DNA from: Callorhinchus milii
Lineage: Eukaryota
DNA: 64,000 bases
Assembly (NCBI RefSeq): GCF_018977255.1
Contig: NW_024704742.1
Coordinates: forward strand, 4,900,001-4,964,000
Direction: 5' to 3'
Shown here: one piece after another, positions 25,177-50,500 of the stretch
How the letters are laid out: each line of letters opens with the position of its first letter
Numbering within the stretch: position 1 is the first letter of the stretch
Position numbers and translations under genes: made by a program
Notes under the pieces: model-generated
What the model saw: only the letters and a program-made list of their open reading frames with translations
The model's database searches: none
What the model was told of the DNA's origin: nothing

Positions 25177-39395
<14,219 letters not shown>

Positions 39396-41509
39396 TTTCA
39401 TTGACATTTATTCGGAGTTTAGCAGTATTTTTTAAATGAATCAAATAAGTAAGAATAAGGCGAGCGTGTTTAAATTGAAGTCACATTTTCTTAGCAAAGA
39501 TGTCTTTTCGCTGCACTACATCTTACAACGGTGTAAAAAAAACCACACACATGAATCGGTTTTAATTCAATACGCTTCCAATTAAACTATTTGAAAAGGT
39601 TATGTTACCTGTCCTTTCTGGTACAAATTGTGGTAGCGCATTCAGTAAACACTGCACATCAACCACATGCACGTGTTTTCATATCCGCAATGGGTCACAA
39701 ACGGTTCAGATGAAGGGGCTCTTCTGCCTTAGCGCAATTGCCTGAAAATATCTTTCTACAAATGTACTGCAATGCGGGAATAAAATACAAAATGATATCC
39801 TGTTTCAGCCACACTGTATATACTGTCTTTACATTTAATCAAAATACTGTAATGTTAAGTGGTGTTAAATGCAGGACAAAGAGGCAACACAACAATATTA
39901 AAAAAGGCCCATTTTCCCTCCCTCTACAGAGGTGGTGGTGGCGGCATAATTAGTATTTTTCACGTACAGGTTATAAAAGAAAACGTTACTATCAATACTT
40001 TGGAAAAGATGCAGCGGTGACAGAAATGAAAGCCATTGCATTGGGATCAAATCCTGCACAAGTTGAAAGATGTTTGAAAAAATGAAATCGCTGTTCTCCT
40101 TTGGTAGTATAATAGGAAGTTTTTATTGACTTTGTCAAAGCACGTGAAGCTACAAAATGCCCCAAATTGTAACCATTTTGCTTGCCCTAAAGTGCAACGA
40201 TTAACACATTCTACCTTTTGAAACCATAAGAGTAGATTTAAAACCAATCTTGTAATTTAGTTATTGCTTCAACCAGAGCCTGCTCTGTACGTTAACGGCT
40301 TTTTCCACCTGCCAAAACCAATTCAGTGACGTGAGTTGCTTACGAAGGTTCGTGTCTGGTTCCGAGAGTGGTTCGGCGCTTCGATAAAAGTGGCCCGGCT
40401 TTAGAAATACAACATCAAATTTCACGGGGGAAAAAAAGGAATTGAAAATGAACATGGTCTTAAAACCTGGTCCAGACTGATTTTCTTTTGATGACTTGTT
40501 CAAAATTCGGACAGGTTTATTTTCAAACGTAGAGCAGACTCTGAATGGTTTATTCTTTCTTAAAAATTGTTTTGAAAAACATGGGCTGTGGATTCTCAAA
40601 ATACCTGCTTTGTTTACAGAGCGCAACGAAACAAATACGGCCAAAAAAATAAATAATTTCAATTATTGCTTGCTCTGCACTTTCTCACCTGCGGAGAAAA
40701 ACTTTTTCAGTGACGGACTCCAAACAGCGGCCGTATCCCATCACACCGACTTTACTCAAACTCAAAAACGAAGGCTAGTATTTGTATACCATTCCCATTA
40801 GCTTTTAAATCCACCCGCGTTAAAACATTTTCACTTAAAACAACAACAAGTTTGGGATATATTCCGAATTTCTTTTTCATAAGCAACACGCGTCAGTGTA
40901 GGTATTAGTTTATGTGCAAACTCTCAAAAGACGGCTTACAGTAAGTGATGCGCACAATTTTCAGGCAGTGCGTGACTTCAATGTTTTCTCACAAAGTCAG
41001 CTAAAGAACTCTGTGCTCTTACAGTACGTTGCAGCAGCTCACACACAATGAGGAAATTCCCTGGTATCAAGTTGTATAAATAAAGCAATCTCTATGTTTC
41101 TACAGTAGGTTTGATCATGCACAACATACTACAGTTTCACCCCAAATCCACGTAGAAATGTACGCATCAACTGAATGGTGGATCGATAGCTGATGTTCAT
41201 TCAGACTTCACATTTTCTAGTGGTGTATGGCCCTAATCGGATTTAAACACAGATTTATGCTACACGTAGTGCTATTTTCTACAAGACAAAATGCACATCA
41301 AACTGTAAAGACTACTGTTGCACAAACTGCCACTGTACTTCTCACTAAATTTCTACGAGTTACCTTGTCCCATCACAAAACACGACAAAAATGGCGCCAA
41401 CAACAGAGAATTTGGAAGGCACTTTTGACTGCAGGTATGCTCCTTAAAAAGTATAAACCGTCAGTGTAAGGTGTGCTCTGTAAAGGCATGAAGTCGTCAC
41501 AAACAGTAA

Positions 41510-41574: not shown

Positions 41575-44500
41575 CTAGAAAAAAAAAGATTATTTTTACA
41601 TCAGTTTACATTTTAAATAGAAATATTCATGAGCCACTGCAGGCACCATGTTAAACTTACACCCTCTTACCAGAATCATTTTGGCATTAATGCTTCTCTT
41701 GACCATTGGTAAATGACCCTAACTTTGAAACTTATGACAGATTCCAGACTATAACTCTGCCAATTAATGCTGAAATGCCATTTGCCTTAAACTTGTGTCC
41801 TGGATAAACCTTTTCCACTATTTAAAATATATTGTACCTTTTCTTATTAACACGTGCTTTCCTTTTTGTCAGAAATATAAAAAATGTACAAAAAATATAA
41901 AATGTACAATTTCCGAAACAGGAAGGAAATACCCCTCTCGAAATTCAAATGGGAAAACATTCAACTGTGAGCGCAATTCTCCACTGTTAAAATGACTCGT
42001 GGCCTTGAATATTTTAACCTAGCATTCTCTTTTAAATACTGTCTGGGTATACTAGCCTTAGAGGGTGTCCAGTGATGGACTGGATTAACACCCGAGTTGA
42101 AAGGGTTTAGCTATGACGAGAGTGAAAGGCTGGAGTAATGTTCCTGAGAACAGAGTAGATTAAGCGTGATTTGATTGAAGAATTGTTTAAATAATCAAAG
42201 CTATCGACAGGTTAGTAATGGATGATTCTCCGCTAAGGTAGAGAGCTCCAATACGAAGGGGCTTAGCTTTAAATCAGAACCCAGATAATTAGAACTGAGG
42301 TCAGAAACCCCTTCTTCACACAATAGAAATATTAAAGGGTACGGCCAAAGGCATTAGGAATGAAAGATCTGTCAAGACCTAACAAACCGGGGGCACAGGC
42401 TTGATGGGCTGAATGGCCTTCTTCAGCTCGGATCCATAACTCTGCATGTCCAGCGCCGTGGGACGTCCTCCTGACGTGAAAGGCGCTATACAAATGTTGT
42501 TGTTGTTGTTGCTGCAGGAATTGTGAGTAGCCAAACGGTAAAACGCAAGGGGCTTACGTTTGGTCATGGATTTTAATGACATGGCAAATAATGTGACGCA
42601 CGTAATATGGAACGGCGTTCAGTGTTGTGACAAAACCTTCTCTCCGCAACGTTGTTTGTTCGCGAGCCTCTCCCTCCTCCGTACAATGTGAAAAATCTTT
42701 CAAGATGGCTTTCTGTGTGAGGCACCTCACGTTCTAAATGATTGGTTATAAAGCTTGGTTCATAAAACAACACACTTGTTATCCACGGAGTTTGTGAAAC
42801 TGTAATAAATTTCACCTACAAAGTACACAGTCACTTGACATTACAGCACATCCCGTGAAGCACTTTTAAGACATCCTCCTGACGCGAAAGGCACTATACG
42901 AAATGTAAGGATAAGTAAAGATCAACGAATGCACAAATGGAGTGGATAAAGTGAAAAAAATAAGGAATGAAACAGAAAGAGACACTCGTGTAGGAAACAG
43001 TCCAGATTTGACATTTAGAAGCGTTTCTACAAACCAGCCTCGGTGTCGTGGTTTCACATGCCAATCATTGCAACGCCTTACATTCTCTTGCCTGCTTAAT
43101 GATGCACTGAGCGTGTGAAATTCCTTCAATGTGGATAATTCACAGGTGATTTAAAAAGCTGACACACAAAACCACGAGCGGATCAGGGGGAAAAGATTGC
43201 CCGGGGAACGGACGAGGCAATGCAGAGCGTCAAGTGGAGGGACTCCCCCAAACAGTTTTAAATCGTTGTTCGAAAAAAAGTGACACATCCAGAATGAAGC
43301 AAAATCCGTTGCGTCGGCAAAGAAGCAGCGAAAAGCAGTGGAGTACGGAGGGAGCAATAGGGAACTGCACGAGAAGGAGAGTGGTGGAGAGAGAGGAAAA
43401 AAAACAAGTCTGAACGTAGTAGAGAGGCAGTGTAAAGCACTGCAAAATTTAGTGGAGGGAGACTAGGACCAAAAAATACTATATACTGTACTTATATCTG
43501 TTGCAATTCCAAAGCTGAGTAGTTAGGCCAGGAACCATCTGCTCTGCTAATGCGAGCTGTAACAAAAATTCAATCAATGAGACCATATATAAATTGCATT
43601 ACAGTTGCTTCAGATTGCGTCTGAGGACCCCCTCTTCGGTCACCTCTCCCTGGCCTCAAGTTCCCCCGCTTGTCAGGCGCTCTGAGAACCTACCCTGCGT
43701 GGAGGGCGCTATCTCCATACAAGCTGTCGCTGTACGTTTATTACAAACCAAGGGATTTAAGCAAAAACATACTCGAATGCAGGGGGTTTTCGTGGCCCCC
43801 AAACAAACCCTAAAAGCTAAAGTCACAACACAATACTCAGCGCCTCACCTCCAAATGTCTCCGTTCGCTCCACGTAATGAGTTACATTTGCAGTGTCCGG
43901 GCAGTGACTTTTTGATCGCACGGAAAAATTAGATAAATACTTAGAAAACGCATCGAACGAAACGTTTCTGGCACTTAAGTGAATTTGGATGAGGGGTTGA
44001 CATCGGTGCGAACTTCGCCTACACGGTATCGTTCCTTAACCGTGAAACAAATTCACCCACAAAAGTGACAGTAATTTTCTGCTCCATACTTGACGTTGTG
44101 TTTGTTGCAATTTCTTTGTAACCTGCCCCCCACGATTTGGGTTTTGATTTCTTTTTTTAAAAAAAGCACAGGCGACAGGAAGGGCATATTTGATGCAGTC
44201 CTGTTAAAACTAGAACACTCTCCCTCAATCCTCAATCCCTCCGCCTTGCCCCTTCTCCCCCCCTTTTCAAATCCCCGCCTGAAAACCTTCCCCTTCGACC
44301 GTGCTTACGGCCACCTGCCCCCCACGCACCCCACGGCTCGGAGTCAGGCTCCGCCACTGTTAAGCGCTCTGAGACGCCACCCTTGCGTGGAGGGCGCTGT
44401 ACAAGTGCAAGCGGCTGTCGTTAGGACGTACGCAAGTCGGCTGCTACAACAGGGATTACTAAGAGTGCTTTTGAGATGTTTCAAGTGCAAGTTCTTTCTC

Positions 44501-47500
44501 AACGTGTGGCGTTTCATATTCAAGGTGCTTGACGTGGTCTTGGATTGCTGGAGCTTTAGGTCAGGCTCCGCTTCCGAACAGTCTAAGTCGAAGCATAGTT
44601 TTGTTGCAGAAATAAAATAAAATGCAAAACTACAAAGGCTGGAACTCGGATGTAAAACGGTGTTGCTAGAAATAAATGCACAGCGGGTTGATTAATATCT
44701 GAAAGAGAAACTTTGATTTGATATTTTTTTTTACTGACCCAGGGTCCTCCCTCGTAAGAGAGGTTTAGATTAAAAATGTCCTACCGCCCATTTGATCTCG
44801 TTTCTAACAGAATATTAACCGACAAGCTTCCCATTACAGCATCAAGTTGTTTCTGGCCTCTACCAAGGGAATCTGGTTCCTCCACACAAACAGTTTTAGT
44901 TGAATCTTTTAGAGATGCGCATTAAAAGTATTTTTTTTAAAAAAAACAACCTGCTGCATACATATTACTATGTTATCAGACCGTTCGTTCACTGCTGCTA
45001 CGAAAGCATTACGTCCATATCTCAATCCAATTTTTTAAAACTAGCAAAAGTTATTGGAAAAGCCACTTTGAATTGCACTCTATTGGTGGTAAATAGTAAA
45101 CGTGATCATTTATTAAAACTACTGAAATATTAAATTGAAAGTGCAAGGATCAATATTGCAACTAAAACGTTTACAACGTCAACGGTCCCGAACCCACTGG
45201 TCACAAATACCAATGGTGCAAATGTGTGCCTCTGCTTACCGAGATCATTATTATTCATCATTGCATTGGATGCCCGAAGCCTTGGGCCCTGTTGAGTGAA
45301 GTGATAGCCAAACTTAAGAAGTGTCGTATTTTGTTCTAACATATTAGCGATCTCCATTTCCACTTTGTTGCCCAGCTGCTGACACTGTTAAAAACAGGAG
45401 AGGAAGGAGTTACAAGACGACAAATTTCTTCTACAGCGTAGGCAATCGGCTGAGTTTTTAAGCAGTATCTACCAGGACATGTCTTTAAGACTGGCTGAGT
45501 TTGCTCTGTCCCTCAGACGACCAAATTTGAGCTTCAATTTGACCTAAACGGAAATGTTAGCTGAGATTGTGATTTGTTCATCGGTCTTCTATGTGGGAGA
45601 CTGACTCTTGGATCATCTGTTTGTCGTTGTTTTGTCGTTAAAGCGTTGGAGAGACGTAGAGAGAGAGGGAAAAAAAAACACAAGGGTTGATTTGTGTTTT
45701 CGGGGGCATATGTTAAAAGAAGGGAAGCTTACAAGAGTGCTCAACTCGTTTTCATCAGAGAAAAGGTTAAGGGGATCGTAATCCAGGCCTTGAACATGCT
45801 GAGATCCTGGTCCTCACATACAAAGCCCTCCATGGCCTCGCCCCGCTCTACCTCTGTGACCTTCTAACCCCCTACCGACCCACCCGCTCCCTCCGCTCAG
45901 CCGGCTCTGACCTGCTCCACGTCCCCCAACCCACCCGCCCCACCATTGGCGGGAGAGCCTTCATCCACTCTGCCCCCAACCTCTGGAATTCCATCCCCCA
46001 ATCACTCCGCATCGCCCCCTCCTTAGCCTCCTTCAAGTCCCCGCCTCAAGACCCTCCTCTTCGACTATGCCATCGGTCACCCCCCTTCCCTTCCCCTCCC
46101 TTCAACCCCAACCCGGGTCTGAAATGCTGTACTCTGTGCAGCGCCTTGGGACGTCCTCCCGACGTGAAAGGCGCTATACAAATGTAACCTTGTTGTTGTG
46201 TTGTTGTTGAGATACCTGGACAATGCAGATGTAAGCAGCCTATTCAACGTGGCATCATCAGTAGAACTAAGAAACACAAGACTTTTGTGTTTTAATCAAG
46301 CCTTAATCAAGAATTGAGGCCACGCCACTCAAAGCGTTAAATGCCCAAAGTCTTGGGCTTTGTTGAGTGCAGTGATAGCTAATCTGAAGAGGTGTTGTAT
46401 TTTGCTCAAACAGCGGAGATCACCAAGACACCCAACAAAAGCAGCTCATCGAGTTTTACATACCCCCAATCCTTCAAAAAGTGCTGAATTAATTCATGCT
46501 CAGAAATGGAATGAAGGTTTATAGGGATCAGTGTATATTCCATGTTTTTTTTCCGATGTTGTGATCGAGTAAATGTCTTGCGGGGAAAGCAAGCAGTGAG
46601 AACTGAATAACCCACATAGCATGGATATTCTGGAGCTCTACAGGATTATCAGAGATTCAAAATGACAACAGCCATGTTACAGCTTTGATATTACTGCTCC
46701 ATAAACAGCATCGGCATTCTAAAGGCCAATCATTTACCCACCTGTCCCGATTATCGGACCAAACTGACTACCTTAGTATTGCAAACCTATCTTCGTTTCA
46801 GCATTTTTTTTTATAAGCAGTTAAATAAAGAGCTCACAGCACTCTTCCCTTTATCTTTCATCATTGGAAAAACATACATTGCGTCTCCCCTCAGATTTCT
46901 TTTCTCCAACACACTACATGTTTCAGGAGTTGGGATATTATACAGTTCCATCAGTTCTTATAATAATAATAATAATAATAATCCTTGCATCTGATACAGC
47001 GCCTTATATCACATTGCTGAGACGTCTCAAAGTGTTTCACAGGATATACTGTAAAGTGGATTGACTGTGTATTTCGCGGGACTTGTTGGCCAGAGCACCG
47101 GTTGAAACTTCCCTTCTCTTTTCAAATAGTGCTATGGGATCTTTAACATCCACCTCTGTTTAACATTATGCTAAAAAGCAATGACACCTCCAACAACATG
47201 CCATTAAATTGCATATGCCTTAAGGGAACCTGAGTATTTTTCAGTATGTTATTTTGCAGCGCAAAACTGTAACCCACTGTTCATATCATACAGGGTGAAT
47301 ATACAGGAATATGTCACGTTAATAATGAGATATAATGAATACATCACCATTAATATTCATCTTACTTACTTGGTTGTCAATTTTAAGTTCCATCAATGAG
47401 GTATTATACTGGAGAGCTTTCACTAGTGCCATGATGCCATTACCAGTAATGAAGTTCGATTCCATGTTCAAACTCTTCAATGTTTTGTTAACCTTCAACA

Positions 47501-50500
47501 TTTCTGCAAAAGACTTCAAAAGGAGGAAGGGGCACAGTCTCAAATCAAACTTGGAAGGGATTACACTGAGGGGTAGCCATGCACCAAACACACGTTTAAC
47601 TGCCTTCGACATTGCCTTCACTAAGAGAGAAATCCCCTATAATGCTGTCCTCTGGATCCAATATCTCTGAAGCACGTACGAGGAGAGCGTGTAAAAATGA
47701 CAAGAAATGAGGGTGGAGGGGAGGCTTATAATTGGGTTGCCCTGTACTTTAATCAAAAGATTATTTGTACCTCTGTAAGGAGGCCAAATAGCAATTAAAC
47801 TACCTGTCCGCTCCCCTCCGCTCAGCAAGCTCCAGCCTGTGGACATCCCCCGCCCGGCCTGCCCCACCATCGGCGCTCAGGTCTTCAGCCTTTCTGCCCC
47901 CTACCCTTTGAAACTTCATCCCACAGTCCCTTCACCTCGCTCCCTCCCTCCCTCGCCTCCTTCAAAGCACGTCTCAAGACGCTCCTCTTCAACCGTGCCT
48001 TCCCCCACCCTCCTACTCCTTACCCCCTTGCCCTACACCCCTTCTGAGTCCAACCGCTAGCTCGGGTTTAAATCCCCGACTGTCCAGCGCCTTGGGGCAT
48101 CCTCCCGATGTGAAAGGCCCTCTACAAATGTAATTCGATGTTGTCGTTGCTGTTATTATATCTTATACAATATATATCTATGTATGTGTCTTTGAATCCT
48201 GTGTAAAAACAACTTACGACAGCCACAGGATCATTACTTCGTGTTGCGACTAGACTGAACTTCGTCACGTAGGTGTTATCCTTCAAAGCGTCTGCGTATG
48301 CTTTTAAAGTTGATACGGGAATGTTCTGAGAATCACACAGTCGTTCACGTTTTAAAACAAAATAGATTTTGCGATAAAAAAAAATTCTCGTCCCACAATT
48401 AAGAACAATGTCCTATCGCTTCTCTACGCCGATCATGAGTAAAGGCATCGTTCACTGATCAAAAGGGCTCGCACACAGGTGCTTCTTGACCTCTTGACAT
48501 GAAACAATTCCTGTCTTTAATTTTACAATGTGGTTGCTCAAACAGCGGCTCAAACTTATAATAATAATCATAATAATCCCTGCATAATCCTTCGCGACGT
48601 CTCAAAGCGCTTCACGGAATATACTGTCAAGTGAATTCACTGTATATTTTGTGGACGAAACGTGGCAGCCAATTGAGCACAACAGCGTCCCCTACAAACA
48701 GTCGTCGATTGCGTGACCAATGTTTGTTTTAAGCGATAAAGTAAATAGGACGTACTGACAGCTGACCCCGAGCCCTACTCAAAGAGGCATTTTCCACCAG
48801 CGCCTCCTGAGGGGTGGCTGTGGGGGTGGAGATGCCCTGAAACCAATATAAACACTGTCTCTGGAAGCTGCAGTGAACATGCTTTCTGGTTGCTAGTTTA
48901 CAGAGGCGTACTGACTGCTCTGTACAGCGATCGAGAGGATCTGGCACACAGGAATTACATTGTCAAACATGATCCGCAAATAATCCAGGGCAGCCTTTGA
49001 ATTGTAACTGTCGATTCAAATCACAGTCCTTCAACACTTATTAAAGTGACTCATTGCTATAAAGTAGGTGTAAGACATCAATCACAACCGCATGAAACAG
49101 TTACTGCATCTTAAAAGCCCCTGTGGGTGTATTGTATTTTTAACAGTAGCGTTTGACATTACAGGCTGCCAAGCAATTTGCTTAAATCAAAACATTCCCT
49201 GTTCGGAAATTCACCGTCTCTGCTCCCATTTCTTTACCAGCAGAAAGGATATTTTGGAAGACAGGGAGAAATCTTCTTCTCACTAACACAATCGATTCTC
49301 AAACCAAATTGAAATTCGAATAAAACCTCACTTTAGGCAATAACAAAGTATCAAAATTATTTTGTGGGTGAAAGAGGGAAATGAACTTTTTTTTTAGCAG
49401 TTAAAACAGTTAATGAATACCAGAAGTAAGGAGGCGATAGATAAGAATGCTTATCCTTTCTGTGTATTTGTTTCTTTGGAACGAGAGTAAAATTGACCTT
49501 CAGGCTTCTAGGAAATACTTTTTATTTTTAAAACACTGCTGTAGTACATCCTTGACTCAGCTGTTTTCATAGATTAGTTAAGGGAAGTGGGATAATAGGA
49601 TCTTATAATATCTATCACATGATTGACTGTAAAGTACAATGACGGTATATTTTGCAAATGAACATGCAGACAATTTGCATGCAGAAATGTCCCCCACACA
49701 GCCATGGTATGACAGAACAACCTTATTTCAGGGACTGATGGCCAGAACACTAGGAGAAATGTTCTTTCTTTGCAAATAGTGTCATGGGATCTTGAAATCC
49801 ACCTGATCATGAAGGCTCAGGCTGCGGACTTGCAACATAAAACTATCCATAATTCAAAACTATTTGGCACTAAAAAAAATAGTTTCACTCATACGATAGC
49901 TGTTGTGGAAAATTAACACAACTAAATCACACCGTCATTGCAGGGGTACACAACAAGCGTTTGAGTTACGATATGTCTGGCTCGCTGACTGTGAACGTGT
50001 GTACTTACAATGGAAGCTGAAGCTGACTATCAATAGCAAACTAGTCACCAAGCTAAACAACATTTTAGAACATATTCGATACGTATTTATATTCCAGGAG
50101 AAGATATAGATATATCAATAAGATATAGATATATATAGATATATATAGATATAGATATATCAATATATCAATAAGATATATCAATATCAATCAATATTGC
50201 AATATCTTATCAATAATAAGATATTGCAAAAGCTGCAAGTGTCTTGTCACGATTCGGTTACCTTTATATTATTAAGGTTAATCTCCTCGAGCTCAGGGTC
50301 GTTTTCCATCACTTGCTTTAAAGTCTCTTCCACGTCTGTTGAGTTCGGCAATTCATCAGGCACCGGCTTGTACTGCGTCGGTTGGATGATGCCTGTCGGA
50401 GGCAACAACAACAACAACAACAAGTTGCATTTATATAGTGCCCCTCATGCCGGGGATCATCCCGGAGGCAGACAAGCTGAGCGACAACAGCAGTTTCAAA

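Follow-up and report, generated by a model that had tools for sequence, protein, structure and literature searches.

Intron 8 of the tropomodulin-1 (TMOD1) gene of Callorhinchus milii contains a short, diverged duplicate of part of the exon that follows it. The locus raises the question of whether this duplicate is a fossil of tandem exon duplication or a cryptic last exon giving a truncated isoform, the two possibilities put forward in an initial annotation. The window that we analysed, a stretch of 64,000 nt from contig NW_024704742.1, carries the TMOD1 gene on its minus strand, and the translations of the exons are 100% identical to four proteins of 361 residues that are named by their sources as C. 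milii tropomodulin-1, isoforms X1 and X2.

The exon limits were defined by the joints in spliced contigs. An exon at 48327-48218 (minus strand, as are all TMOD1 features given below) precedes exon 8, which comprises 144 nt at 47370..47513 and is delimited by the joints 45384^47370 and 47513^48218, present in all four sequencing runs used. The 3' end of exon 8, at 47370, lies in phase 0 (translation ...IDNQ) and was the partner earlier proposed for splicing to the duplicate. Exon 9, the parent of the duplicate, comprises 145 nt at 45240..45384, as given by the joints 45384^47370 and 41574^45240. Its translation corresponds to residues 292-338 of TMOD1 in PDB entry 8f8t_T (E 1.5e-23) and also matches entry 1IO0 (E 2.7e-25). 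The last exon, 10b, extends from 41574 downward. The database versions of each isoform (P0001 and P0003 versus P0002 and P0004) differ at residue 102, reading KQQ in one and KEQ in the other; the window encodes the Glu, and the Gln/Glu difference is probably allelic. On the opposite, plus strand, open frames at about 36200-39400 read like a rhodanese-domain gene that converges on the TMOD1 3' end and that, we presume, resembles TSTD2, the neighbour of TMOD1 in tetrapods.

The duplicate occupies 46330..46413 on the minus strand. Its 84 nt, read as 46413-46330, align without gaps to 45342-45259, equivalent to positions 43-126 of exon 9, with 66/84 nucleotides identical; the second-best placement gives only 32/84. 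The extent and identity first described for this copy are thus exact to the base. The Smith-Waterman score against exon 9 is 50, compared with 11.5 +/- 1.4 (maximum 18) for 200 shuffled sequences, and blastn gives 79.8% identity over the 84 nt with E 1.9e-16 in a comparison of 1.5 kb by 2.5 kb. The relationship is also seen at the protein level, where 17/28 residues are identical between copy and parent (tblastn E 3e-5 within the window). A six-frame search of the 991.5 Mb genome matches the protein of the copy with E 0.006, and a 36-residue translation of the copy matches tropomodulin in the PDB (1IO0, E 2e-4). The copy lies 1071 nt upstream of the parent segment, on the same strand and in intron 8, in agreement with the distance of about 1 kb and the shared orientation reported for it at the outset.

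Only 84 of the 145 nt of exon 9 are represented in the copy. On the same diagonal, identity drops to background outside the core, with 9/42 matches beyond its 5' edge and 2/19 beyond its 3' edge, and hence neither of the parental splice sites was copied or has survived. A match of 17/42 between the 5' part of exon 9 and the sequence at a shift of -2 is not significant after the 17 offsets tried. When the 120-nt flanks of the copy were compared with the parental intron-plus-exon flanks and with cDNA-type flanks (exon 8; exons 10a and 10b), shuffle p values of 0.42-0.98 were obtained in five tests, and no flank homology points either to a genomic or to a cDNA (retro-copy) origin. In a relaxed blastn comparison of the intron with the exon 9 region, aimed at a larger collinear duplication, the only similarity beyond the core was a pair of repeats. 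One member lies at approximately 45800..46240 (minus strand, as delineated by contig depth and alignment), about 90 nt downstream of the core, and is 64.6% identical over 195 nt to the second, at 44410-44230; we interpret them as two separate insertions of a dispersed element.

Several dispersed repeats are found in this part of the window (about 45800-46240, 44230-44420, 46909-47175 and 42370-42636). In each of the four runs, contig depth over them reaches the thousands or tens of thousands, and the bins between 45574 and 46374 are very deeply covered. We take these repeats to be SINE-like, of a family with a conserved 'gcgcctt...gacgtcccaaggcgct' core. Intron 8 also contains an (ATT)n microsatellite at 46962-46990, and reads are cut at 46949-46989.

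Compared with the whole 991.5 Mb genome, the fragment and its two flanks each occur just once, which indicates that the fragment is not part of a mobile element. Four paralogous exons are present in the genome, one of them tropomodulin-like and three associated with long open frames (482-519 aa), the latter being taken as leiomodin-like from these frames and from PDB matches; no extra exon copies occur within 1.5 kb of any of the four. The fragment has no DNA match to these paralogous exons, whereas for TMOD1 exon 9 a match to one of them persists, with 75.5% identity over 49 nt. We conclude that the fragment was derived from TMOD1 exon 9 itself.

The 18 differences between copy and parent are spread over the core, fall 7, 3 and 8 on the three codon positions, and comprise 11 nonsynonymous and 7 synonymous changes. 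The replacements affect 11/28 codons (M>L, L>F, L>P, K>Q, F>I, G>S, F>C, G>S, R>W, S>F and M>L), and all 11 of the replaced parent residues are invariant in six aligned sequences that range from the chimaera through whale shark to quail, a bird, so that the replacements must have arisen on the lineage of the copy. A model in which the copy is neutral and the parent accepts no replacement predicts 65% nonsynonymous changes, and the 11/18 seen is in line with it (binomial p 0.81). The early description of the changes as mostly non-synonymous and suggestive of decay fits these counts, within the low power of so short a segment. The dN/dS ratio, proposed at the same time as a check, is less clear-cut: the pairwise value for copy and parent is 0.33 (Fisher p 0.055), from 28 codons that give almost no power, and by itself it could hint at past constraint on the copy. 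Overall, the changes are compatible with a copy that drifts neutrally next to a parent under constraint, again with the low power of 28 codons.

Other signs of decay and age are seen. An in-frame TGA at 46420..46422 (minus strand), three codons upstream of the core and located just where it was first described, closes the reading frame on the 5' side, and the stop-to-stop frame that holds the copy is 38 codons long. The divergence of the copy from its parent is 0.21 per site, or 0.25 with Jukes-Cantor correction. C. milii has been described, in the excerpted text of PMC3964593, as having the lowest neutral rate and the slowest-evolving genome among the vertebrates examined there, and at such a rate the divergence implies that the copying event is probably old.

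On this evidence we consider it very probable that the fragment is a non-functional, exon-derived relic in the intron, an inert pseudo-exon. An 84-nt internal piece of exon 9 would have been copied into intron 8, 1071 nt upstream and with its orientation kept, probably through local duplication of DNA or an insertion made during templated repair; a larger tandem duplication that later lost its edges by deletion is an alternative. Having no splice sites, the fragment would then have drifted neutrally to its present divergence of about 21%, and would be transcribed only within the intron of the pre-mRNA, to be lost on the joining of exons 8 and 9. The sharpness of its edges, with about 79% identity inside and background outside, is unexpected under uniform decay of a whole duplicated exon. 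In that case the flanks derived from the exon would be expected to match the parent as well as the core does, and it follows that the copy either was partial from the start or was altered by a second event; a one-step partial insertion offers the simplest account. The idea of a fossil of tandem exon duplication thus survives as regards the fossil, but this fossil corresponds to 84 nt from the interior of the exon instead of to the whole of it, is sharply bounded and lacks the parental splice sites.

These sharp edges, with exon-derived flanks that are fully randomised, also lend themselves to a different interpretation, in which the similarity of the core does not reflect a recent origin. The core might instead be a gene-conversion patch on an older duplicate that is no longer recognisable, or might be held by selection at the RNA level, as a decoy for the splicing factors of the exon. 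A dN/dS of 0.33, instead of about 0.5-1, would be in keeping with such a history. However, the flanks show no homology that would speak for an older and larger duplicate; the 18 substitutions run across the core, at 7, 3 and 8 by codon position; and there is no sign of a structured RNA, as the intron has no match to any Rfam family and the predicted folding of the region is on a par with that of shuffled sequences (z -0.38). Since the edges are explained more simply by a one-step partial insertion, we regard conversion or an RNA-level role as unlikely.

The proposal that the fragment acts as a cryptic or tissue-restricted terminal exon is more specific. Exon 8 would be spliced to 46383, 26 residues would be added before a stop codon at 46305-46303, and the transcript would be polyadenylated after an ATTAAA hexamer, giving a TMOD1 of roughly 318 residues that has neither the last LRR, nor the cap helix, nor the basic tail. 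The sequence elements that this requires are all present and their phases are compatible. The acceptor-like motif CCTCTTCAG at 46384..46392 is followed by ATT at 46383 in phase 0, compatible with the end of exon 8 at 47370. From there a hypothetical open frame of 26 codons plus TAA (46305-46303) extends over 46303..46383; the ATTAAA hexamer follows at 46291..46296, and about 16 nt further lies TGTGTTTCTT, a GU-rich stretch that adds to the case for an exon. The frame, its stop codon and the hexamer (46296-46291) are all found where the initial annotation had placed them.

The acceptor had been attributed to substitutions in the copy. A site does end at 46384, in phase 0, but the parent reads CTTCTTAAG at the same place, so that the motif is largely inherited from coding sequence. 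The A>C change at -3 is the sole one to improve it, that at -7 (T>C) exchanging one pyrimidine for another. The site is weak, with 10/18 pyrimidines at positions -20 to -4, where the acceptors of exons 8 and 9 have 16/18 and 15/18, respectively, and intron 8, 1985 nt long, contains nine YAG sites of this quality in all. The remaining elements are also commonplace. Frames are open for at least 26 codons at 27% of intron positions, and at 3.9% of minus-strand positions an AATAAA or ATTAAA starts no more than 30 nt downstream. The acceptor-like site, phase-0 fit, open frame, stop codon and ATTAAA with its GU-rich stretch are unremarkable individually, and it is their joint occurrence that is uncommon. 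We attribute the CAG, the short open frame and the ATTAAA to leftovers of coding sequence plus chance.

Information on the use of the copy in transcripts comes from assembled contigs of four runs (X1, X2, X3 and X5, out of 13 listed) from two studies. The run type entered in the record is a guess ('RNA?'), and GT..AG-type joints are found at every TMOD1 exon boundary, from which we conclude that the four runs do contain spliced RNA. In all four, 45384 is joined straight to 47370, skipping 1985 nt that include the copy, with depths of 654.8, 263.6, 22.6 and 8.1. Stretches without contig cover were counted as evidence only where they are bridged by a joint. The depth bin that spans the proposed acceptor, 46375-46641, is 0 in three runs and 20.6 in the fourth, X2, and this last value is explained by a single unspliced contig of 403 nt at 46449-46851 (28.6 x 193/267 = 20.7), so that no assembled contig enters the proposed exon. 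Between 46375 and 46448, proposed acceptor included, there is no contig in any of the four runs, whose contigs bridge the region.

A junction 47370^46383 had been named as the test of a cryptic exon, and in the assembled contigs of these four runs no contig lies over the acceptor. Assembled contigs drop rare variants and show no RNA ends, and the joints considered are 15, with 34 more in the full listing. The contig result argues against a major isoform that uses the copy, not against rare use. The unspliced contig of run X2 (46449-46851, minus strand) is itself unusual, as its depth of 28.6 is 4-9 times that of other intronic contigs (3-7.1), compared with 263.6 for the exon contig; it ends 36 nt upstream of the pseudo-exon core and could be pre-mRNA noise or a separate transcript.

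Protein databases, queried with the translations of exons 8 and 9, give a consistent picture. Four proteins match exon 8 with 100% identity, and all are of full length, 361 residues, with no truncated form among them. Shorter isoforms in sharks (321, 325 and 343 residues) result from the skipping of internal exons or from retained sequence, and all of them keep exon 9; they are exon skips, not C-terminal truncations. Among the short shark TMOD1 isoforms (among P0023, P0013, P0122 and P0029), the skipped exon is that for residues 95-134 or that for residues 209-244, which is one LRR. In one catshark isoform, ...NNNDL is followed by 18 inserted residues, suggestive of read-through past the donor of exon 9.

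The product expected from the cryptic exon would have no counterpart of the 23 residues encoded by the first 69 nt of exon 9, and it would carry radical changes at residues of the LRR cap that are invariant in the six aligned sequences; with both defects it would probably not fold like the LRR cap. A functional truncated isoform encoded by the copy is unlikely, judging from its sequence. Taken with the exon 8-exon 9 contigs of all four runs, which are assembled across the copy and leave its acceptor without cover, the full-length proteins, the weak acceptor and the commonplace hexamer, these features speak against the cryptic last exon and truncated isoform of the initial annotation. A cryptic or tissue-restricted exon is in our view very unlikely, even allowing that rare isoforms can escape assembled contigs. 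In its most specific form, a latent or rarely used terminal exon confined to a tissue or stage outside the four runs, with exon 8 spliced to 46383 and an end after ATTAAA to give a protein of about 318 residues, the proposal is likewise very unlikely. If true, it would represent a C-terminally remodelled TMOD1 in which the LRR cap is swapped for a diverged half-copy of itself, and the lineage-specific birth of a terminal exon from a partial exon duplicate.

That the similarity is fortuitous, or an artefact of low complexity, is refuted by the Smith-Waterman score of 50 against a shuffle maximum of 18, the blastn E value of 1.9e-16 and the match to tropomodulin in the PDB, and the likelihood of either is practically nil.

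Comparison with known systems places the copy, as an inert pseudo-exon, among relics and not among working exons. Alternative exons derived from tandem exon duplication are mutually exclusive or alternative terminal homologous exons (Kondrashov & Koonin, as cited in the excerpted text of PMC8373072). The copy resembles them in repeating sequence from an exon of its own gene, within the intron next to that exon and in the same orientation, with homology visible in both DNA and protein. According to the same excerpt (PMC8373072), functional tandem-duplicated exons are preserved whole, with their frame and splice sites, are included in mRNA and in most cases are conserved among jawed vertebrates. 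The copy, unlike these, comprises 84/145 nt of its parent, has no parental splice site, has a TGA upstream, and is accompanied by no transcript evidence in the data analysed. Homology is thus present, but the complete exon unit and, as judged by the contigs, inclusion in mRNA are not. Conversely, the copy has lost its exon integrity and, as far as 28 codons can show, its substitutions are free of the protein constraint on the parent, both of which characterise an exon-derived intronic pseudo-exon. TMOD does not occur in the main text of the catalogue of tandem exon duplications (PMC8373072), and a full-text literature search on tropomodulin exon duplication returned nothing relevant.

Like other intronic pseudo-exons, the copy has features that resemble splice sites and an open reading frame, is ignored by the spliceosome and is removed with its intron. 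Its origin is different. Most described pseudo-exons, judging by the abstracts listed, arise by chance or from transposons and are noticed on mutational activation, whereas this one goes back to a true coding exon of TMOD1 itself.

An alternative C-terminus of TMOD1 does exist, further downstream in the gene. A cassette exon of 65 nt, exon 10a, lies between exons 9 and 10b at 43556-43492 (minus strand) and is optional, its limits being given by the joints 43556^45240 and 41574^43492 (exon 9 to 10a to 10b), which are present in two of the four runs, X1 and X3. The final codon of exon 10a is TAA, with a GT donor immediately after it. Inclusion of the exon replaces the last 21 residues of the protein and turns exon 10b into 3' UTR, while exon 9 is left intact; the resulting form is the one annotated as isoform X2. 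A C-terminus of the 10a type is also annotated in isoforms of whale shark and sawshark. The peptides encoded by exons 10a and 10b show a faint similarity (shuffle p about 0.01), and there is no similarity between them in DNA.

Exon 10a shares with the proposed cryptic exon the property of providing an alternative C-terminal end of TMOD1 downstream of the LRR domain. In contrast to the copy in intron 8, however, it is truly spliced, annotated and conserved in sharks. No C-terminal splice forms of TMOD1 were apparent among the literature matches listed, as judged by their titles and abstracts.

The biological importance of the intronic copy is small. It adds another case in which a piece of a coding exon has been copied into a neighbouring intron and has persisted there as a recognisable relic. 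The copy also carries a warning for gene predictors and for readers who work from sequence alone, in that similarity to an exon is not enough to define one, even when accompanied by a CAG, an ATTAAA and an open frame. Attention is thereby redirected to the real, conserved alternative C-terminus of TMOD1 in cartilaginous fishes, provided by cassette exon 10a, which changes the basic tail behind the LRR cap.
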